64,000 bases of DNA from a plasmid, in sequence record NZ_AP019754.1; one strand, 5' to 3'. Below the pieces are notes generated by a model that saw only the letters and a list, made by a program, of their open reading frames with translations, did no database searches and was not told the origin of the DNA. Made by a program: the position numbers and the translations under genes. Below, piece by piece: positions 4,111-62,150 of this stretch (its first letter is position 1; every line of letters starts with the position of its first letter).

Positions 4111-4695
4111 ATGAAAGCATCAACGGCAACATCTGGAGAAACACGCAAAGAGACGATTATTGCGGGCGCCATAGCGCTGTTTATCGAGAAGGGAATTGAA
4201 AAAACCACGACACGTGACTTAACGGAATCGCTGGGTATTTCACGCAGCCATATTTATCACTACTTTCCTGACTGGCACACGCTCACCCTGACTGCGCTGG
4301 AGCACTTTATGCAGCGCGAGTTGGATGATTTCACCCTTGAGCTGGCCGCCCTGGATCCTGTGCAGCAACTACACTCTATGATTGAAGGCCACATTCCTGA
4401 CACATCAGATTCAGTCTGGCGGCTTTATGCTTCCTTCTGGCAAATGGCCAGCCATAATGCCGATTACGCTGAACTGGCCGACAAGATTATCGCCGGTTGG
4501 GATGCGTTGCTCTGCAAGATTATTCGCGCGGGCGTTGAACAAGGGTGCTTGCATACGGATGATGTGGCACGCAGCGCACGCCAGCTTAACGCCTTGCTCA
4601 ACGGCTACGCCGATCTGCTGAGTATTACGTCTTCACCCGCGCGAATTGAGCAGGCGTTGGCCGACATTCACCACTTTGTGCAATTTATGCGTTAA
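4111..4695 (+). CDS. TetR/AcrR family transcriptional regulator
   Basis: N-terminal HTH TRKETIIAGAIALFIEKGIEKTTTRDLTESLGISRSHIYHYF. AGGAG before ATG 4111. Divergent from the TMD-only ABC gene. Confidence 0.8.
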   Translation: MKASTATSGETRKETIIAGAIALFIEKGIEKTTTRDLTESLGISRSHIYHYFPDWHTLTLTALEHFMQRELDDFTLELAALDPVQQLHSMIEGHIPDTSDSVWRLYASFWQMASHNADYAELADKIIAGWDALLCKIIRAGVEQGCLHTDDVARSARQLNALLNGYADLLSITSSPARIEQALADIHHFVQFMR

Positions 4696-5158: not shown

Positions 5159-6544
5159 ATGATGACGGATAAAGTCCGTATTGATAGTTTGAATGCGAAT
5201 ACATTAAACGGTAACAATGAGTCTTATCTGGCCCGCCAGGCCGAGTTTGAATCAAATGTTCGAAGTTATCCGCGTAAATTACCATTAGCGATTGCGAAAG
5301 CTAATGGTGTCTGGATCACAGACGTCGAGAACAAACAGTATCTTGACTGTCTTGCCGGTGCCGGAACGCTTGCGTTAGGTCATAATCACCCTGACGTACT
5401 GCAAAGCATCCAAAATGTCATTACCAGCGGCTTGCCGTTACATACTCTGGATCTGACCACGCCACTCAAAGATGCGTTTTCAGAATACCTGCTCTCCCTG
5501 TTACCGGGTCAGGGCAAAGAATACTGCCTGCAATTCACCGGTCCTTCCGGCGCGGATGCCGTTGAAGCCGCTATCAAGCTGGCGAAGAAACATACTGGCC
5601 GTTCAGGGGTGATCAGCTTCTCCGGGGGTTATCACGGCATGACGCACGGTGCGCTTTCTGTCACCGGTAACCTGTCACCGAAAGAAGCCGTTAACGGCAT
5701 GATGCCTGAAGTGCAGTTTATGCCTTATCCGCACCTGTACCGTTGCCCGCTGGGCATTGGTGGTGACGCGGGCGTAAAAGCGCTGACCTACTACTTCGAA
5801 AACCTGATCAACGACGTTGAAAGTGGTGTGCGCAAACCTGCGGCCGTGATCCTCGAAGCAGTTCAGGGTGAAGGCGGCGTGAACCCTGCCCCGGCTGAAT
5901 GGCTGCAGCGCATCCGTAAAGTTACCCAGGAACACGGTATTCTGCTGATTCTGGATGAAGTTCAGGCAGGTTTTGCCCGCACTGGTAAATTCTTTGCGTT
6001 CGAGCATGCCGGTATTGAGCCCGATATCATTGTAATGTCAAAAGCCGTCGGCGGCGGTTTGCCGCTTGCCGTGCTGGGGATCAAAAAGCAGTTTGATGCC
6101 TGGTCACCTGGCCACCACACCGGGACATTCCGTGGCAACCAACTGGCCATGGCAACCGGCCTGACCACGCTGAAGCTGCTGAAAGAAAACAACATCGCTG
6201 GCAGCGTCGCTGAAAAAGGTGAGTGGCTGAAAGGCAAACTTGCCGAACTGCAGAAACGTTATCCTGCCATCGGTAACGTTCGCGGTCTTGGCCTGATGAT
6301 CGGTATTGAAATGGTCAAGCCGAACGAAGCGCAGGATCATATGGGCTGCTACCCGGCCGATGGCGATTTATCGGCTCTGGTTCAGAAGAAATGCTTTGAA
6401 AACGGTCTGATCCTTGAGCGCGGGGGACGTCACGGTTGCGTATTGCGTCTGCTGCCTTCCCTGTTGATCAATCATGACGAAATGCAGGTTTTCCTGGATA
6501 AGTTCGAAAGCGCCCTGCTTGCCGCTGGCGTCGAAGCAGTTTGA
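5159..6544 (+). CDS. dat: diaminobutyrate--2-oxoglutarate aminotransferase (class III PLP aminotransferase)
   Basis: 461 aa; matches Dat of Acinetobacter/Enterobacter ([33 protein letters not shown]). Paired with ddc downstream. Alternative start at ATG 5162. Confidence 0.85.
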
Positions 6545-20884: not shown

Positions 20885-21040
20885 TTGTGTCAAATGCATT
20901 TCGACGCGTCATACGATAACATGCCAACACTTGCCAGCCTGTGCTTATGGCTGGCAAGCATAATAAACAACTCATTCGCCTTTGATGTTGCTCCTGTCAG
21001 CCTGCGTTAACGGAGCCAGCACGTCATTAAGTGAGATACT

Positions 21041-54237: not shown

Positions 54238-54558
54238 CTAAGGCACATTCAGGTAACGCAGCAGAGCGGTCATACAGGCTGCGCCAAAAATGATGACGAT
54301 CAGCGGCGCCCTGCGCCAGGCGAGAAAAATGGCAAACGACACGCCCAGCAGCCTTGCCATCCCGGCAAAATGCTGACCTTCGAACAACGTGGTGGTGGCT
54401 GCAACGGCCAGTAACAGTACCGTGGCCGCATCGGATAACACATTTTGCGTGCGCTCACTGACAGGCAACCGGTTACCCAGTTTGACGCCCGCATAACGAA
54501 TGGCATAGGTTCCGGCAGCCAGCAAGGCAATGCCTGCAATTATCATCGGATGATTCAT
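54238..54558 (-). CDS. azlD: branched-chain amino-acid exporter small subunit
   Basis: 106 aa, four TM. Overlaps azlC. Confidence 0.75.
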   Translation of the reverse strand: MNHPMIIAGIALLAAGTYAIRYAGVKLGNRLPVSERTQNVLSDAATVLLLAVAATTTLFEGQHFAGMARLLGVSFAIFLAWRRAPLIVIIFGAACMTALLRYLNVP

Positions 54559-55226
54559 TTACGCGATCTCCACGTAAGCAGCCCTAACAACGAAAACAGA
54601 ACAGGCATCCCTGCTGGAACAAATGGCGTGACCGCCAGCGACAGCACGGCGCCGGTAGCCGCAGGAATGCGGGTTCGGGGTTTGCGTAACGCCGGGAAGA
54701 TGAGTGCGATAAGAATGGCGGGAAAAACCGCATCCAGACCGATAACGGAAATATTCGGGATAAACTGGCCAATCGCGGCCCCGAGCATGACGGTGAACGG
54801 CCAGATCAATCCGATACCGATGCCGCACAGCCAAAACGCACTGCGGCGTTGAGCCAGCTGCGGCTGAGAGATGCCGAACACCACACTTTCATCGTTCATA
54901 ATGTGACAGCCGAGCGCCCCCCGCCAGCCTCTGCCCACTAAGTCTTTAACCGCAATGCCAAAGGGAAGATGGCGGGCGTTGACCAGCAAACCTGCCGCCG
55001 CCGCGGTTAACGGACTGCCACCGCCGGCAACGATGCCAATAAATAAGAATTCCGATGCGCCAGCCAGCACCAGCGTTGATAACGCCAGCGGTACCCAAAA
55101 CGGAAAGCCATCAGCAGTGGCGAGCGACCCGTAAGACAGGCCGACAATGCCATCTGCGATACAGACCAGAAAAATTGCTTTTATAACGCCTTTATCCAGC
55201 GTGAATTTTTTTGCCAGCATCAACAT
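54555..55226 (-). CDS. azlC: branched-chain amino-acid exporter AzlC-family permease
   Basis: 223 aa polytopic. AzlC family pattern (GL.VNARHLPFG). Confidence 0.75.
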   Translation of the reverse strand: MLMLAKKFTLDKGVIKAIFLVCIADGIVGLSYGSLATADGFPFWVPLALSTLVLAGASEFLFIGIVAGGGSPLTAAAAGLLVNARHLPFGIAVKDLVGRGWRGALGCHIMNDESVVFGISQPQLAQRRSAFWLCGIGIGLIWPFTVMLGAAIGQFIPNISVIGLDAVFPAILIALIFPALRKPRTRIPAATGAVLSLAVTPFVPAGMPVLFSLLGLLTWRSRK

Positions 55227-55317
55227 CGAATCCCATAACGAACGATAAATCCATTATAATGAACATCGGATATGCATTACAAGACGAACGATACGTTCAT
55301 TTTAACGAACAGGAAAA

Positions 55318-55869
55318 GTGATGAGCACGCCCATTGATATCATTGCCCGAGGTTTAGTAAGAGAACGCCTGCGTGCCGGCCTGACGCTGGCTGAAGTTGC
55401 TCGCCGGGCGGGGATTGCAAAATCGACCCTGTCTCAGCTTGAAGCCGGTAACGGCAATCCGGGTATTGAGACGTTGTGGTCGCTGTGTGTCGCGCTCAAT
55501 ATTCCATTTGCACGCCTGATGGAGCCGGAAACGAACCGGTTACAGGTTATTCGCCGCGGAGAAGGCCCCACGGTGGCTGCTGAGCAGGCTGATTACAAAG
55601 CCGTCTTACTGGCAACCTGTCCACCGGGCGCACGACGGGATATCTATCTGCTGCACATACAGCCCGGCAGCGAACGCTGCTCACAGCCGCATTCACCGAA
55701 TACCATCGAACATTTAATTTTGACGCAAGGGCGCGCAGAGGTTGGGCCGGTTGATTCACCCGTTGAGCTTGAGGTAGGCGATTACATCAGCTACCCGGGC
55801 GACACTGAGCATATTTTTCGTGCGCTTGAGCCAGATACGCTGGCTGTGCTGGTCATGGAGCATGTGTGA
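55318..55869 (+). CDS. XRE-family HTH regulator with C-terminal cupin domain
   Basis: HTH LTLAEVARRAGIAKSTLSQLEAGNGNP followed by a cupin beta-barrel. Divergent from azlCD. Confidence 0.8.
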   Translation: MMSTPIDIIARGLVRERLRAGLTLAEVARRAGIAKSTLSQLEAGNGNPGIETLWSLCVALNIPFARLMEPETNRLQVIRRGEGPTVAAEQADYKAVLLATCPPGARRDIYLLHIQPGSERCSQPHSPNTIEHLILTQGRAEVGPVDSPVELEVGDYISYPGDTEHIFRALEPDTLAVLVMEHV

Positions 55870-55891: not shown

Positions 55892-57325
55892 TTAAACACA
55901 GACTTCCTGGGCTATTGCGGCGCTCTTGCTGAGGGAGGCCAGTGAGATAACACGATGCGCGCTTTTCTCCAGTAAAGCGAGATCGTGGCTGACCAGCAAA
56001 ATGGCGCAGCGTTGCTGTGTTGCCAGTTCGCTAATCAACGCCAGCGTCTGCTGCTGAACGACAGGATCCAGGCGCGACGTCGGCTCATCCGCGAATAAAA
56101 ACACAGGGTCCAGTAACATCACCCTGAGCAGTGAAAAGCGCTGAAGCTCGCCGCCTGACAAACCTGAAGCCGGACGGTTCAGCAACGCGTGCGCTAATCC
56201 CAGTTGTGCCATCAGTTCATCACGTCGTTTCACCGTGGCGTGGTGCAGCCGCAGCAGATCATCGATAACCCTGGCCATCGCGATGTCAGGTGGAAATATG
56301 GCTGAGGGATCCTGATAAAGTTTTTGGTAACGTAACCTACTGGCAGCCCCTGGACGCACGACCTTGCCCGAATCGGGCGTTATCAAACCGCATAGCGTAT
56401 CCCCCAGGCTACTTTTACCGCAGCCGCTTTCGCCGTAAAGCCCCACGATTTCGCCGGCCCGAAAGATTAGCGAGGCATTGTGAAACAGTTGCTTCCCTGA
56501 CCGTTTCAGAGAAAGGCCCTCTGTCTGTAACACGATGGTTTCATCACAGGGTACTCGCGAGCCTGGCGCCCAGGCCTCAGGATCGGCCGCCAACAGCAAT
56601 TGGGTGTAAGGCGCTTGTGGACGGTATAACACCTGCCCGGCGCTGCCCTGCTCAACGACTTTGCCTTTATGCATCACCATGACCTCACCACCTAACTGCC
56701 GGGCCAGTGCAATGTCGTGCGTGATCGTCAGCAAGGTTTCACCCTGAGCCACCGCCGTATTTAACAGGTTACCCATTTCATCCCGCCGCGCGACGTCCAG
56801 CCCTTTAGTCGGCTCGTCTGCAATCAGCAGCGTCGCGCCCCCCGCGCGAGCAGCCGCGAAGCAAACCCGCTGGGCCATTCCCCCTGAAAGCTGCCAGGGA
56901 AAACGCGCAGAGGCATGCGCAAGCCCCAGTTGGTCGAGTGCCTGTGCCGCGGCCTGTTGTGCATCCCTCCTGGCTAAGCCCCGCACGTACCGGTAACCTT
57001 CCGCGACCTGAGCGCTGACACGCATTGTTGGATCGAGCGCCAGCCCGGGTTCCTGGGGCAAAGACGCGATGCGATGCCCCCACTGAGCGCGAAGACGGGC
57101 CAGATCGGTTTGGAGATCATAACGTTGTCCGTCAATCTCAACCGTGCCTGTGGCACGGAGTCCTTCTGGTAACGCCCCCATGATGGCCTGGGCGAACAGA
57201 CTTTTTCCCGATCCGGTTTCGCCCACCAGCGTCATGGGTTTGCCCGGCTGAATGACCATGCTCACGGGCTCGACGATGCAGTCTTCGGCGTAAACGGCGA
57301 CCTGTTTAATTACTATGCCCGTCAT
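55892..57325 (-). CDS. ABC transporter ATP-binding protein with two fused nucleotide-binding domains (Dpp/Opp/Nik D-F type)
   Basis: 477 aa. Two Walker A sites (GETGSGKS; GESGCGKS), two signature motifs (LSGGMAQR; LSGGELQR) and two Walker B sites. Confidence 0.85.
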   Translation of the reverse strand: MTGIVIKQVAVYAEDCIVEPVSMVIQPGKPMTLVGETGSGKSLFAQAIMGALPEGLRATGTVEIDGQRYDLQTDLARLRAQWGHRIASLPQEPGLALDPTMRVSAQVAEGYRYVRGLARRDAQQAAAQALDQLGLAHASARFPWQLSGGMAQRVCFAAARAGGATLLIADEPTKGLDVARRDEMGNLLNTAVAQGETLLTITHDIALARQLGGEVMVMHKGKVVEQGSAGQVLYRPQAPYTQLLLAADPEAWAPGSRVPCDETIVLQTEGLSLKRSGKQLFHNASLIFRAGEIVGLYGESGCGKSSLGDTLCGLITPDSGKVVRPGAASRLRYQKLYQDPSAIFPPDIAMARVIDDLLRLHHATVKRRDELMAQLGLAHALLNRPASGLSGGELQRFSLLRVMLLDPVFLFADEPTSRLDPVVQQQTLALISELATQQRCAILLVSHDLALLEKSAHRVISLASLSKSAAIAQEVCV

Positions 57326-58101
57326 ATCCGATCCTTATTCACTAATAAATTCATGCCAGTCAGTAACAAAAAAAGCACCAGCACGGGCTGGAGTAGAAGC
57401 CAGGGCGCTTCCCAGGCATAGGGAAAAAGTTCTGTCATCATCAGCCCCAGTTCTGGTGTCGGTGGGCGAACCCCCACGCTGATGAATCCCAATGCGGACA
57501 CCGCCATAACGGCACTGCTAAACGCATAGACCGTTAACGTCAGCAACAAGGGCGCCATGGCTGGCCATAAGTGTCTGCGAAACAGATAGCGTATCGAGAA
57601 ACCGAGCAGTGAAGAGGACTGGATGGCGGGAGACATAACAACGGGTCGCAGGGTGGCTCGCGTCACGCGGAAAAACTCGACCCACAGCACCAGTGAAATC
57701 CCCAGCCACAACATTTCTGGCGAGTCAGGTGAGATAGCCGCTAACAACAGCACCAGCAGCAGACCGGGAAGCGCAAGGCACATATCCGCTAATGCGTTGC
57801 ACACCTTGTCCACCCAACCGCCGCGCCAGGCACTCATGATCCCCGCCAGCGTGCCCATTATCAGTGCCGTGATAACGCATATCGCTGCCAGGCCCAGTGA
57901 TAACCTGAGTGCCGCACTTAACCGGGCCAGCATTGAGCGGCCAAGATGGTCATAGCCCAACCAGGCCTGCCCAGAGGGAAGCTGTAACATCTGCAACAGG
58001 TCCTGCTGCACAGGATCCCCAGCCCCGAATAGCGGCACCAGCCAGGCAAACGCGAGCAACGCCAGAATAATTGCCAGACCTGTTTTTTGACGAAAGGTCA
58101 T
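57322..58101 (-). CDS. ABC transporter permease (DppC/NikC type)
   Basis: ATG 58101 (MTFRQKTG...) makes an ATGA overlap with the upstream permease stop. Six TM, with the BPD_transp_1 EAA-like loop. Confidence 0.8.
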   Translation of the reverse strand: MTFRQKTGLAIILALLAFAWLVPLFGAGDPVQQDLLQMLQLPSGQAWLGYDHLGRSMLARLSAALRLSLGLAAICVITALIMGTLAGIMSAWRGGWVDKVCNALADMCLALPGLLLVLLLAAISPDSPEMLWLGISLVLWVEFFRVTRATLRPVVMSPAIQSSSLLGFSIRYLFRRHLWPAMAPLLLTLTVYAFSSAVMAVSALGFISVGVRPPTPELGLMMTELFPYAWEAPWLLLQPVLVLFLLLTGMNLLVNKDRI

Positions 58102-59036
58102 ATGCGTTTCCCCCTTGGATCCAACACATAGCACAAACCATCGACCAGCATGTTCAGGGTGACAAACGTCAGCCCCAGTACCATTGCGCTGGCCTGTATC
58201 ACGGGCACGTCCCGGGCAAAAATCGCATGGACCAGCGCATGGCCAATGCCTGGCCAGGCAAACAGCATTTCCACCACCACCACGCCTTCCACCAGCCAGA
58301 CGAACTGCATGCCGAGCCAGGTCACGACCGGAACGCTGAGATTACGCAGGGCGTGACGCCAGAAAAGACGCGGTTGAGAGAGACCCTTTTGTGCCCCCCA
58401 GCGATACCAGCTGGCCGTTACAGCCTGGAATGTCGCCTCACGTACGACCCGAGCGCCCACGGCACTTAGCGGCAGCGCCAGCGTCACTGACGGCAGGATG
58501 AAATGTCGCCAGTTTCCCTGCCCGGCACTGGGCAGCCAGTCCAGACGCAGCGCAAACAAAACGATAAGCAGCAGGCCAAGAGCAAAATGCGGAACCGATT
58601 TGAGAATGGCGGCAGCGCCGTTAATGGCCCGGTCCAGGAAACGGCCGGGATGACAGCCTGCCCAAATCCCGAGTGGAATAATCAGCAGCAGGGTCAGTAA
58701 CAGAGAAAAGCCGGCAAGGGCGAACGTTTGTTTCAATTGCCAGACCAGTTCGCCACTGACAGGCTCACCCGATACCAGTGAACGGCCAAAGTTGAAGCGC
58801 AGCAGATCCCACATCCACTGCCCCAGCGCACTTCCCTGGGCGGTCATATCCGCCAGTTGCTGTTTTACCTGGGCTACCGCTGCCAGATCGACCCGATCAT
58901 AACCATAACGTCCCGATGCGATACGCCAGGCCATATCACCCGGTAATGCCTGTACCAGAACAAACGTTAAGATCCCGACCGCGAGAATGACGAAGGCGGC
59001 CTGGCAAAGGCGCCAGCTGAGTTGTTTAAGCATCAT
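58098..59036 (-). CDS. ABC transporter permease (DppB/NikB type)
   Basis: The internal ATG (MMLKQLSWRL...) forms an ATGA overlap with the SBP stop. The ORF track extends to 59045. Confidence 0.8.
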   Translation of the reverse strand: MMLKQLSWRLCQAAFVILAVGILTFVLVQALPGDMAWRIASGRYGYDRVDLAAVAQVKQQLADMTAQGSALGQWMWDLLRFNFGRSLVSGEPVSGELVWQLKQTFALAGFSLLLTLLLIIPLGIWAGCHPGRFLDRAINGAAAILKSVPHFALGLLLIVLFALRLDWLPSAGQGNWRHFILPSVTLALPLSAVGARVVREATFQAVTASWYRWGAQKGLSQPRLFWRHALRNLSVPVVTWLGMQFVWLVEGVVVVEMLFAWPGIGHALVHAIFARDVPVIQASAMVLGLTFVTLNMLVDGLCYVLDPRGKRI

Positions 59037-60559
59037 TTCACCCATTGCATATCACGCAGGCCAAAATGGCGTTCAAACGGATCCAGCGTGACCGAGGTGA
59101 GGCTGGCATTAACTGCCGCTGACTGCTGATACCAGGCGATGGGAATAACCGGCAAATCGCGCTGGAAAGCCGTAGTAATGACCTCTCTGGCCTTTTGTCG
59201 CACCGCAGGATCATGACTCTGCGATAGCGTACCGAGCGCCTCGTTAAAGGCCTTGTCGTGCCAGTTCATTGCTCCCCAGTCACCGCCTTGAGGGCCATAA
59301 TCCTGAAGCAGCGTACCGGTGGGATCGGGCGTTAAAGCAAAATTACGGGCGAACAGCGCCATCTGCAGGCTCCCGTCGTGATGACGAGCGGGGATTTCAC
59401 TGGAGTTAGTTGAATTAATGACGACATCGATTCCGATCTGACGCAGCTGCTGTTGGATCACCATCGCGATGAGCGGCAATTCAGGACGGTCCGGATAGGT
59501 CAGCAGCGTGAGCGTAAAACGCTGTCCATTACGGATCAGTATCCCATCCTGACCGGCTTGCCAGCCTGACTGCGTAAGCAATGCTGTTGCACGCTGTGGT
59601 GAGTAATCCAGCGCGGGCAATGCCGGATTGTGCCACTCGGCCATCGAAGGCGGGAACATCTGTGTCGCCGCCCCCGGATAGCGCAAAACCGCATTAGCAA
59701 GCGCACTCCGGTTAATCGCCAGGCTTAACGCCTCGCGCGTGGTGTGGTCGCTGAGAAAGGGATGTGCCAGATTCAGTTTGAGCATCACCGTTCGTGGAAC
59801 GGAAACGGTAAGCAGCTGCAGAGATCTTTTATGTGACAGGCGCTGCCGACTGGCGGCATCAAGGTTAAAAACATAATCGGCGTCTCCGCTTTCAGCCAGC
59901 AGTGCGCGTGTTTCAGCGCGTCCCGCAGATAAAAATTCAGCGCCAGCGATGGCCGGTTTTTTCCCCCAGTAACCCTCAAATCTCTTTACGCTCAGCGCCT
60001 GAGGCGGCTGAAAACTCACCAGCTGAAACGGACCGCTGCCAATGATCCGCGTGACAGCGTTCGTGTTATCCCATGATGCCAGCGCCAGAATTTGTGAACG
60101 ACTTTCTGCCAGCACCGCCAGTAGCGGTGTAAAAGGTTCACTGAGTGTGATGGTGACCTGTCGATCTTCACCCACGATCGACGTTATCGGTGCCTTATCC
60201 AGCAAGCCCGGCTTACCGCGGGCGATGTTAAGTGATTTCACCACGCTTTCAGCAGTAACAGGGGAACCGTCGTGAAAATGGGCGCCTGGACGCAGTGTAA
60301 AGCGCCATTGCAGACCATCCGGAGAAGCCTGCCAGCTCTCTGCAAGCGCTGGAACAGGGGCTCCTTTAGCATCCGTCTCCACCAGCGTTTCCACCACATC
60401 CATGCGGAGTAAAATATCACCCGAAAGAGCGGGATCGGCACCCTTAATTTCAAATGGGGCGGCAATACGGACCGGTTTTGTTTCGGCAGCACCGGCACTC
60501 AAGGAGGCAAATAACAGGCACGCAAGCGTGCTGTGAAGGAGGTGCTTAAGTTGTTTCAT
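59033..60559 (-). CDS. ABC transporter substrate-binding protein, family 5 (peptide/nickel/opine-metallophore type), signal peptide
   Basis: The ORF track starts at GTG 60577; ATG 60559 (MKQLKHLLHSTLACLLFASLSAGAAE) gives a signal peptide. About 508 aa SBP_bac_5 architecture. Confidence 0.8.
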   Translation of the reverse strand: MKQLKHLLHSTLACLLFASLSAGAAETKPVRIAAPFEIKGADPALSGDILLRMDVVETLVETDAKGAPVPALAESWQASPDGLQWRFTLRPGAHFHDGSPVTAESVVKSLNIARGKPGLLDKAPITSIVGEDRQVTITLSEPFTPLLAVLAESRSQILALASWDNTNAVTRIIGSGPFQLVSFQPPQALSVKRFEGYWGKKPAIAGAEFLSAGRAETRALLAESGDADYVFNLDAASRQRLSHKRSLQLLTVSVPRTVMLKLNLAHPFLSDHTTREALSLAINRSALANAVLRYPGAATQMFPPSMAEWHNPALPALDYSPQRATALLTQSGWQAGQDGILIRNGQRFTLTLLTYPDRPELPLIAMVIQQQLRQIGIDVVINSTNSSEIPARHHDGSLQMALFARNFALTPDPTGTLLQDYGPQGGDWGAMNWHDKAFNEALGTLSQSHDPAVRQKAREVITTAFQRDLPVIPIAWYQQSAAVNASLTSVTLDPFERHFGLRDMQWVK

Positions 60560-60590
60560 AATATGTCTTTTAACCACATAATGTTACCCA

Positions 60591-60615
60591 GAAATATTAT
60601 GTTATAACATATCAA
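60591..60615. promoter_or_regulatory. Zur box (zinc uptake regulator operator) upstream of the ABC importer operon
   Basis: gaaatattATGTTATAACATAtcaa contains the 14-bp perfect palindrome TATGTTATAACATA. Matches the gammaproteobacterial Zur consensus GAAATGTTATAwTATAACATTTC. Confidence 0.65.
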
Positions 60616-60726
60616 CCCAAAGCAAAACCCATCTGAACATGTCGAGTCGAAAACGGGATAGTCACTCAGCAGTTTCACGATCCTGTGTTTTGCTATTCCT
60701 GACAAACAGTGTTGAAAATCACCGCC

Positions 60727-60751
60727 ATTTTGTTATGTTATAACATATTAA
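60727..60751. promoter_or_regulatory. second Zur box, upstream of the divergent zigA-like gene
   Basis: ttttgtTATGTTATAACATAttaaa: the same 16-bp core TTATGTTATAACATAT as box 1, 26 bp upstream of the zigA start. Confidence 0.65.
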
Positions 60752-60776
60752 ATGACACTGATTTTAAGGATCTCTC

Positions 60777-62009
60777 ATGGCGCTTCATTCCTTACCGGAC
60801 TCACCCGATCCCCGCTTGCCTGTTTCTGTACTGTCAGGATTTCTCGGCGCAGGTAAAACGACACTGCTAAATCACATTCTTAATAATCGCGAGGGTCGAC
60901 GCATTGCAGTGATTGTTAACGATATGTCTGAAGTCAACATTGATGCGGCGTTGGTGCGTAATGGCGGAGCTGAACTCTCTCGTACCGACGAAAAGCTGGT
61001 GGAAATGAGCAATGGCTGCATATGCTGCACCCTTCGTGAAGACCTGTTACTGGAGGTCAAACGGCTGGCGCAGGAAGGCCGCTTTGATCATCTTGTCATA
61101 GAATCGACCGGCATCTCTGAGCCGCTTCCGGTTGCAGAAACCTTCACCTTCGCCGATGAGGACGGGGAGAGTTTATCCACTATTGCGCGGTTAGATACCA
61201 TGGTCACCGTCGTAGATGGGTATAACTTCCTTCAGGATTACCGTTCGGTCGACTCGCTTCAGGCACGAGGAGAATCTCTTGGGGCAGAAGATGAGCGATC
61301 TGTCGTCGATCTTCTGGTCGATCAAATCGAATTCTGTGATGTGCTGGTGGTTAATAAGACTGACCTCATCACGGAGGATGAGCAACGGACGCTTAAAGCG
61401 ATGTTACATTCGCTGAATCCACGAGCGCGTATCATCACCAGCCACTTTGGTAACGTTCCCCTTGATCAGGTACTGGATACCGGTCTGTTTGACTTTGATC
61501 AGGCTGCACAGGCACCGGGTTGGCTGAAAGAGCTGCGCGGCGAGCATCAGCCTGAAACAGAAGAGTATGGTATTCGCAGTTTTGTTTACCGTGCCAGGCG
61601 CCCTTTTCATCCAGAACGTTTCTGGCATGCTGTTAACCACCAGCTTGATGGCGTCATTCGCTCGAAAGGCTATTTCTGGCTGGCCAGCCGTCCGGAATAT
61701 GCGGCGATGTGGTCACAGGCCGGTGCGGTCGCACAGCATGGTTATGCCGGGAGCTGGTGGGCCAGCATTCCGCGGGACAAATGGCCCAGAGACAGCGAGT
61801 CTCTGAATTTTATTGCTGAGAACTGGCTGGATGGGATTGGCGATGCCCGACAGGAACTGGTTTTTATCGGCATTGAAATGGATGAAGATCAGGTGCGCAG
61901 CGCGCTTGACGCTGCGCTGTTAACGCCGCTGGAAATGGCTCAGGGCCCCGAATACTGGGTAACGCTTCCGGATCCCATGCCGGGCTGGTTTGGTGATGCT
62001 GATTCCTGA
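60777..62009 (+). CDS. zigA: COG0523 GTPase, zinc metallochaperone (ZigA/Zng1/YeiR-YjiA family)
   Basis: 410 aa. P-loop GFLGAGKTT. CxCC metal motif GCICCTLRE. CobW C-terminal domain. AAGGA RBS. Zur box immediately upstream. Confidence 0.8.
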
Positions 62010-62089
62010 TCGTTATATCCTGAGTGCATCCTCTGACTCGCAATAGAAAACCCGTTTGTCTGTTCTGCATGAAGGCTGAAAGTGATAAG

Positions 62090-62125
62090 AAACAGGCGCA
62101 TTGTCATGCGCCTGTTTTATTGTTG
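62090..62125. terminator. rho-independent terminator (bidirectional) between zigA and sad
   Basis: aAACAGGCGCAttgtcaTGCGCCTGTTttattg. Confidence 0.65.
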
Positions 62126-62150
62126 TTGTCGCCAGAAGCCAGAACGTGGA

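Follow-up and report, generated by a model that had tools for sequence, protein, structure and literature searches.

Predicted Zur operators between zigA and a NikA-like ABC importer operon on a Pantoea ananatis plasmid, with chelated zinc as a possible cargo

The window analyzed here is a stretch of 64,000 nucleotides (nt) of plasmid DNA (sequence record NZ_AP019754.1). Its region of interest, positions 55892 to 62009, carries two divergent transcription units: zigA, which encodes a COG0523-type zinc metallochaperone, and a four-gene operon for a NikA-like ATP-binding cassette (ABC) importer. Two copies of a palindrome, predicted to be operators of the zinc-responsive regulator Zur, lie between them. 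A 6.3-kb region covering this locus corresponds over its full length to large plasmids of Pantoea ananatis at 99.0-99.3% identity (e.g., NC_017553.1 of strain PA13), and all of the matching plasmid records are from Pantoea (32/32). In PA13, crt carotenoid genes and a thiamine cluster (thiS, thiazole synthase) are annotated on the flanks of the match, an arrangement typical of the LPP-1 plasmid. The window is part of a P. ananatis LPP-1 plasmid. The features of the locus are as follows.

55892-57325, minus strand: fused ABC ATPase with two nucleotide-binding domains, 477 amino acids (aa), two ABC_tran domains; last gene of the operon
57322-58134, minus strand: NikC/Opp2C-like permease (BPD_transp_1), longest open reading frame (ORF) 270 aa
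58098-59045, minus strand: NikB/Opp2B-like permease (BPD_transp_1), longest ORF 315 aa
59033-60559, minus strand: NikA-like periplasmic substrate-binding protein (SBP) of family 5 (cluster C), 508 aa, PF00496 at 264 bits; first gene of the operon
60597-60612, no strand assigned: predicted Zur box 1, TTATGTTATAACATAT, exact repeat, on the side of the ABC operon, 38-53 nt upstream of the SBP ATG (60559)
60712-60739, plus strand: predicted sigma-70 promoter of zigA, from a consensus scan only; block kept in Pantoea allii
60733-60748, no strand assigned: predicted Zur box 2, TTATGTTATAACATAT, exact repeat, on the side of zigA, 29-44 nt upstream of the zigA ATG (60777)
60777-62009, plus strand: zigA, COG0523 zinc metallochaperone GTPase, 410 aa, NCBIfam ZigA equivalog with cobW and CobW_C domains

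The ABC operon (55892-60559, minus strand) has the order SBP, permease, permease and fused ATPase, and with the RefSeq starts each junction is a gene overlap of 1-4 nt. The RefSeq start of the NikB/Opp2B-like permease (59033) gives a protein of 311 aa and a 1-nt overlap with the SBP stop codon, the start of the RefSeq homolog of the NikC/Opp2C-like permease (58101) gives 259 aa, and the start of the ATPase gene overlaps the stop codon of the upstream permease by 4 nt. The N-terminus of the SBP reads, by eye, as a signal peptide. The ATPase carries two complete sets of motifs, consisting of Walker A (GETGSGKS and GESGCGKS), the signature (LSGGMAQR and LSGGELQR) and Walker B. The best-scoring NCBIfam models of all four components are of the Nik/Cnt type, and none of the components reaches an equivalog cut-off: the first permease scores 265 bits with Opp2B and 223 with nikB, the second 157 with Opp2C and 149 with nikC, and the best models of the ATPase are YejF, NikD, CntF/CntD and NikE.

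The product of zigA passes the NCBIfam ZigA equivalog model with 696 bits (cut-off 600). It has the cobW and CobW_C domains, the P-loop GFLGAGKTT (pattern GxxGxGK[ST]) and the sequence CICC as its CxCC motif; together with the Zur-type box upstream, these are the features of ZigA and COG0523 subfamily 1. Both units are thus what the initial annotation, made from the sequence, had named: a COG0523 GTPase with a CxCC motif, divergent from a family-5 SBP, two permeases and a single fused ATPase with two nucleotide-binding domains. ZigA of Acinetobacter baumannii, a Zur-regulated COG0523 zinc metallochaperone, is linked to histidine catabolism. It resembles the window protein in the ZigA model, the CxCC motif and the position behind a Zur-type box, but the genomic partner differs, being a NikA-like importer in P. 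ananatis. An Opp-type partner of COG0523 proteins is not mentioned in Haas 2009.

The two divergent start codons are separated by a gap of 217 bp (60560-60776; GC content 0.35), and both exact copies of the 16-mer TTATGTTATAACATAT (60597-60612 and 60733-60748) are found in it at a spacing of 136 nt. The likeness between the copies extends to 19 nt at 95% identity, and the inner core of 14 bp, TATGTTATAACATA, is perfectly palindromic. Even when as many as three mismatches are tolerated, these are the only two TTATGTTATAACATAT sites in the window; in a shuffle control, 0.33 matches were expected and none of 100 shuffles reached four strand-matches. The same core had initially been placed at 60591-60615 and 60727-60751, 25-bp coordinates that are the exact 16-mers with padding. 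When compared with an independent pattern, GTNAYNNNATAACAT, box 1 matches with one mismatch, and the region of box 2 (GTTATGTTATAACAT at 60732-60746) matches with none. Each copy had also been assumed to lie over the likely -10/-35 region of one of the units, and such an overlap is predicted for box 2 only. In the consensus scan, the predicted zigA promoter consists of a -35 element TTGAAA (60712-60717), a 16-nt spacer and a TG-extended -10 element TATGTT (60734-60739), and this -10 element lies inside box 2. The sole match for the ABC operon overlaps the start codon and is not credible. An Rfam scan of the intergenic and leader region gave no riboswitch and no leader RNA family. A third match to the pattern GTNAYNNNATAACAT in the window, at 20908-20922 (GTCATACGATAACAT, 0 mismatches), lies upstream of fumA; it was rejected as probably due to chance because it is non-palindromic and follows the stop codon of a DASS symporter gene, ahead of the terminator hairpin of that gene.

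Multiple lines of comparison bear on the identity of the two palindromes. Both boxes align with the znuA-znuC intergenic operators of Escherichia coli, Erwinia toletana, [Pantoea] beijingensis and Winslowiella iniecta, with TnTnATnTTATAACAT as the common core. In Erwinia amylovora, the 78-bp znuA-znuC region has been described to contain a consensus Zur box, and its control by Zur and zinc has been examined (PMC7705223). A comparison of P. ananatis with P. allii shows conservation of the boxes and of the promoter blocks next to them, whereas the central ~60 nt of the spacer have diverged. Relatives of the operon were collected by a scan of a genome collection, which returned at least 577 genome stretches; the best 80, from Pantoea, Erwinia, Rhizobiaceae, Rhodobacterales and others, were used, and 79 loci were included in the operator count. 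The pattern GTNAYNNNATAACAT was built from znu and azt operators outside this locus and was accepted with at most one mismatch and at most 250 bp upstream of the SBP gene. It was found there in 64 of the 79 loci, in both alpha- and gammaproteobacteria. Elsewhere in these loci, only 13 sites were found in 1.08 Mb (0.003 per 250 bp), which corresponds to an upstream enrichment of ~270-fold. Most of these 13 sites precede either another ABC importer or a COG0523 gene that itself lies ahead of the SBP gene in the same direction; those associated with COG0523 genes are from Paracoccus, Hoeflea and an uncultured gammaproteobacterium. Most loci lacking a pattern match have a palindrome with two mismatches at -16 to -50. 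The motif varies by lineage, and the Paracoccus version is identical to the published pden1341 site, GTAATATAATAACAT.

The four ABC genes are present in the same order in every related locus of sufficient length for the operon, and nearly all of these have an ATPase gene of the fused length. The COG0523 gene is less constant, being adjacent to the operon in only six lineages among the related loci compared. Among the loci examined, a divergent zigA with one box per promoter was observed only in P. ananatis and P. allii, whereas in other Pantoea and Erwinia the operon has one box only and no COG0523 gene beside it.

The closest studied counterpart of the locus is in Paracoccus denitrificans. 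In this species, depletion of zinc from the medium raises the expression of pden1338-1344 more than 8-fold (Neupane et al. 2017, PMC5387054). The promoters of pden1338 and pden1341 contain Zur motifs; promoter DNA was examined by electrophoretic mobility shift assays, and pden1341 was ranked among the Zur-bound promoters (PMC5387054). Binding of P. denitrificans Zur to zur/znuA promoter DNA requires zinc and is not supported by Ni, Mn, Fe or Cu (PMC5387054). Over nearly their full length, the Pantoea proteins are 55% (SBP, pden1341), 52% and 52% (permeases) and 52% (ATPase) identical to those of P. denitrificans, in which the 478-aa ATPase is pden1344 by its position in the cluster, and ZigA is 60% identical to the COG0523 protein identified as pden1338. 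The Pantoea locus also encodes the family motifs GDWG[AS]M[NG]W and [TLV]T[YF]PDRPEL. Gene order, orthology of all components and a Zur-type box upstream of the SBP gene are therefore those of the pden1341-1344-type importer. In both species, the four ABC genes have an identical order with a fused ATPase of ~478 aa last, and Zur-type sites precede the COG0523 gene and the SBP gene. However, in P. denitrificans the seven genes are co-directional (COG0523, DUF1826, DUF6525, SBP, permease, permease and ATPase), whereas in P. ananatis zigA is divergent and genes for DUF1826 and DUF6525 are absent from the window. The operator also differs, being of the alphaproteobacterial type (GTAAYRTAATAACAT) in P. 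denitrificans and of the enterobacterial type in P. ananatis, and the Pantoea locus is plasmid-borne, unlike the P. denitrificans cluster. By sequence comparison, the locus is orthologous to pden1338 and pden1341-1344 and is an Erwiniaceae, plasmid-borne member of this Zur-regulated family.

Because of the alignment with znu operators, the conservation in P. allii, the 64 of 79 related loci and the orthology with P. denitrificans, the palindromes are very probably Zur operators that control both zigA and the ABC operon, in line with their first description as near-consensus Zur operators. Zur control of a transporter of the Nik/Opp class had also been called unusual in Enterobacterales; it is less new than this suggests, as it was published in 2017 for this exact family, which is common across Pantoea and Erwinia.

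Several additional arrangements were observed among the related loci. The P. denitrificans stretch (L002, 1-13400) forms a zinc island with three COG0523 genes, PRA-CH (HisI-like), a cytidine/deoxycytidylate-type deaminase, a short ORF resembling CysRS, DUF1826 and DUF6525, and a FUR-family ORF that overlaps the end of the ATPase gene. In the Pantoea dispersa group, a second importer is located directly upstream of the NikA-like operon (L013, 3770-6602; also L016 and L017). It consists of a Peripla_BP_2 SBP, a FecCD permease and an ABC ATPase, and a separate near-perfect Zur-type palindrome, GTTACGTTATAACAT, precedes its start codon by 12-30 nt, so that two Zur-boxed chelate-type ABC importers are found side by side. 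In Hoeflea alexandrii (L059), clustered Zur-type sites (4451-4488 and 5629-5643) are found beside three COG0523-like genes, and a further, more distant SBP-permease pair is present downstream of the NikA-like operon. A copy of the Pantoea-type operon, with an SBP of 69% identity and a box context identical to that of Pantoea species, is present in an 828-kb record labelled as an Enterobacter ludwigii plasmid (CP195345.1, L014), which suggests a Pantoea-like megaplasmid or a mislabelled record.

With respect to the cargo, the nearest solved relative of the SBP is E. coli NikA by both phmmer (E = 4e-43) and Foldseek (E = 1e-38, 27% identity). Other nickel-binding SBPs and CntA come next; peptide binders score lower. 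AccA and AgaA are also among the structure and sequence matches. The NikA models were failed by a wide margin (228 vs 600 bits for Opp5A_nikA and 178 vs 393 for TIGR02294), as was the CntA model (125 bits vs a cut-off of 800), and the SBP is far under the cut-offs of the DppA and OppA models. Pocket residues were read from an alignment of the 80 family members with NikA and DppA. The position of the NikA metal ligand His416 is Gly425 in the window SBP and Gly in 64/80 members. Other positions are basic: Arg in 69/80 at NikA R137, Lys in 74/80 at R97, Arg in 79/80 at T490 and Arg in 80/80 at DppA R383. At DppA D436 (precursor numbering), which anchors the peptide alpha-amino group, the window SBP has Leu409, with Leu in 77/80 members. 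The pocket thus appears basic and may suit a polyanion, such as a fully coordinated metal-polycarboxylate complex, because these positions are basic and both the nickel ligand and the peptide anchor are missing.

The importer can be compared with several known systems. E. coli NikABCDE holds the nearest solved SBP and has the order SBP, permease, permease and ATPase, and its carboxylate-anchoring Arg137 is kept in the Pantoea protein. However, His416 is replaced by Gly, Trp398 by Phe, Tyr402 by Pro and Thr490 by Arg, the counterparts of NikD and NikE are fused, the NikA models were failed, the operator is of the Zur type, and the annotation flanking the PA13 stretch contains no nikR. Because the models failed, His416 is absent, the operator is of the Zur type and no nikR is annotated nearby, the importer, as judged from its sequence, is not a NikABCDE. 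The amino-anchoring Asp of the Dpp/Opp peptide importers is also absent. CntABCDF of Staphylococcus aureus is a zinc- and iron-regulated importer of the Opp/Nik class (PMC6711530) that takes up zinc as a chelate during zinc starvation (PMC5666155; PMC6711530). The Pantoea importer shares this class with CntABCDF and with the pseudopaline and yersinopine systems, but CntD and CntF are separate proteins whereas the Pantoea ATPase is fused, the SBP fails the CntA model, and no cntKLM-type or exporter gene was found as a conserved neighbor in the related loci compared or annotated in the PA13 stretch. The resemblance to Cnt uptake that had been proposed for the locus would therefore hold for the mode of action and not for membership (125 bits vs 800 for CntA, no cnt neighbor seen and a fused ATPase). 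In Corynebacterium diphtheriae, dip2162-2165 and dip2125-2128 encode NikA/OppA-family transporters that are repressed by zinc and Zur, and zincophore import has been proposed for them (PMC6711530). By description, these loci are similar to the Pantoea locus as Zur-regulated NikA/OppA-like importers, but they are from a Gram-positive actinobacterium, and one is linked to sidAB biosynthesis and also regulated by iron/DtxR. ZniCBA of Rhizobium and Klebsiella (PMC12183173) was set apart by description, its SBP being judged to be of another class from its three conserved zinc-ligand histidines.

The favored explanation is a Zur-repressed divergent pair that includes an importer of chelated zinc. 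Based on the comparative evidence and the P. denitrificans orthologue, under zinc-replete conditions chromosomally encoded Zn-Zur would occupy one palindrome per promoter and keep zigA and the ABC operon off, and zinc starvation would derepress both units. ZigA, as a member of its family, would then act as a GTP-dependent zinc chaperone that supports the metallation of client proteins. The SBP would recognize zinc together with a small anionic chelator as a complex, which the ABC system would import in a way similar to the handling of Ni-(His)2 by NikA or of staphylopine-metal by CntA, and the chelator would not be a product of the adjacent genes. Taken as a whole, this explanation is held with modest confidence, being somewhat more probable than its opposite, while the part that concerns chelated zinc as the cargo is finely balanced.

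Multiple points weigh against this explanation. The NikA metal ligand is lost in most of the family, and inspection of the SBP sequence revealed no His-rich stretch and no clustered His/Cys/Asp motif. The pocket was read through alignments at ~27% identity and a mediocre AlphaFold model (pLDDT 79, pTM 0.55), with which Foldseek adds nothing beyond the sequence search. No metallophore biosynthesis gene was found as a conserved neighbor when the flanking ORFs of the related loci were clustered, which gave lineage-specific synteny only, and the annotation of the corresponding PA13 stretch, to which this check was confined, leaving aside the chromosome and the remainder of the plasmid, names no such gene. 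On the regulatory side, the consensus scan gave no convincing -35/-10 pair near box 1, and the znu operators of three Erwiniaceae served as proxies, since the search for ZnuC relatives returned Erwiniaceae other than P. ananatis. Finally, a P. denitrificans double mutant lacking znuA and aztC suffers zinc deficiency in defined medium buffered with ethylenediaminetetraacetic acid (EDTA), with pden1341-1344 intact (PMC7731109); therefore, pden1341-1344 does not supply zinc from defined medium. By analogy, this result would argue against free zinc or Zn-EDTA as the cargo and would agree with a cargo that defined media lack. In the literature, no paper was found that characterizes the substrate of pden1341 or any orthologue, and none was found that links Pantoea to CntL/CntM.

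The strongest competitor, although an unlikely one, is a Zur-regulated importer of a metal-free anionic nutrient, such as an opine- or peptide-like compound or a metabolite that is otherwise synthesized with the help of a zinc enzyme, which would spare zinc rather than supply it. Zinc-sparing functions are common in Zur regulons, and the P. denitrificans island contains the PRA-CH, deaminase and CysRS-like paralogues. The loss of His416 and the strongly basic pocket positions, which are fit for a polyanion, suit such a nutrient as well, and cluster C SBPs also bind opines and agrocinopines, as do AccA and AgaA among the matches. The P. denitrificans znuA aztC mutant, which stays zinc-starved (PMC7731109), is also in agreement with it. 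However, the four components score best on Nik/Cnt metal-chelate importers and not on peptide or opine systems, the peptide-anchoring Asp is absent from the SBP, and no catabolic or salvage gene is a conserved neighbor in the related loci.

Import of another metal chelate (Ni, Co, Mn or Fe) for alternative cofactors under zinc scarcity is improbable. It would fit the nearest characterized relatives, which are nickel importers, the staphylopine-type systems, which are described as broad-spectrum (PMC5719457), and the induction of many iron- or cobalamin-type ABC systems by zinc limitation in P. denitrificans (PMC5387054). It is opposed by the failed NikA equivalog cut-offs and the missing His416, by the matching PA13 stretch, in which no nikR, urease or hydrogenase genes are annotated, by the response of P. 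denitrificans Zur binding to zinc only and not to Ni, Mn, Fe or Cu (PMC5387054), and by the Zur-type operator found in more than 60 species.

Less probable still is an SBP that binds free Zn2+, which would make the system a third Znu-like high-affinity zinc pump. The Zur regulation agrees with this, and a test of metal binding to pden1341 was proposed by the authors of the P. denitrificans study (PMC5387054), but the double mutant is zinc-deficient despite the orthologue (PMC7731109). In addition, no His-rich loop or clustered His/Cys/Asp motif was seen in the SBP, and the cluster C fold class binds organic ligands or metal chelates. That the palindromes belong to another regulator, such as a Fur-family paralogue or the XRE protein encoded just past the 3' end of the operon, or are non-functional, is hardly credible, as their core fits znu operators and is unlike the Fur-box consensus, the motif shifts by lineage as published Zur motifs do (Paracoccus GTAATATAATAACAT being the published pden1341 site), and the XRE gene is divergent from azlCD in the PA13 annotation in an arrangement conserved only within Pantoea.

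This XRE-family regulator gene (55318-55869, plus strand) lies within positions 54238-55869 of the window. It points toward the ATPase gene and away from azlC-azlD-like genes, in accordance with the matching PA13 annotation. In other Pantoea species, the trio of XRE and azlC-azlD-like genes is found downstream of the operon at a distance of at most ~2 kb. Its absence outside Pantoea makes a link to the function of the operon improbable. On the other side of the locus, one further feature was recorded.

62089-62118, no strand assigned: strong hairpin with a 13-pair GC-rich stem followed by a T-rich tail, between zigA and a convergent aldehyde dehydrogenase gene

This hairpin is likely a bidirectional terminator. 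Sub-threshold Rfam matches to the Salmonella small RNAs STnc40 and STnc320 were observed on both strands at 62044-62150. A strong compositional sign of recent transfer is absent because the GC content of the operon (0.57) is only slightly higher than the window average (0.53). A megablast search of the locus against E. coli genomes, which is an insensitive test, gave no match. P. ananatis is a pathogen of onion and rice. Among the literature found on LPP-1, zinc is not discussed.

ZnuABC and ZinT are the usual explanation for how Enterobacterales obtain zinc; in Pantoea and Erwinia, a NikA-like ABC importer with a Zur-type operator upstream is encoded in addition. The regulatory logic was already established in P. 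denitrificans in 2017, and what is new is the Erwiniaceae, plasmid-borne member. The interest lies in the near-universal association with Zur (79 loci examined) of a transporter family that is widespread (at least 577 genome stretches). As a tentative and rather doubtful extension, the family may represent a third class of proteobacterial zinc-starvation importer beside ZnuABC/ZinT and AztABCD/ZniCBA, one that takes zinc on a chelator not made by the cell itself (metallophore piracy), with plant nicotianamine, histidine or an organic polycarboxylate as candidates. Such a role would fit the lack of linked biosynthesis genes in the loci examined, the basic pocket, the frequency of the family in plant-associated Erwiniaceae and Rhizobiaceae, and the P. 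denitrificans orthologue not rescuing zinc uptake in defined medium. The identity of the cargo would make clear on which zinc species plant-associated and soil bacteria draw once free zinc is exhausted, and it could reveal a fitness factor of P. ananatis on LPP-1.

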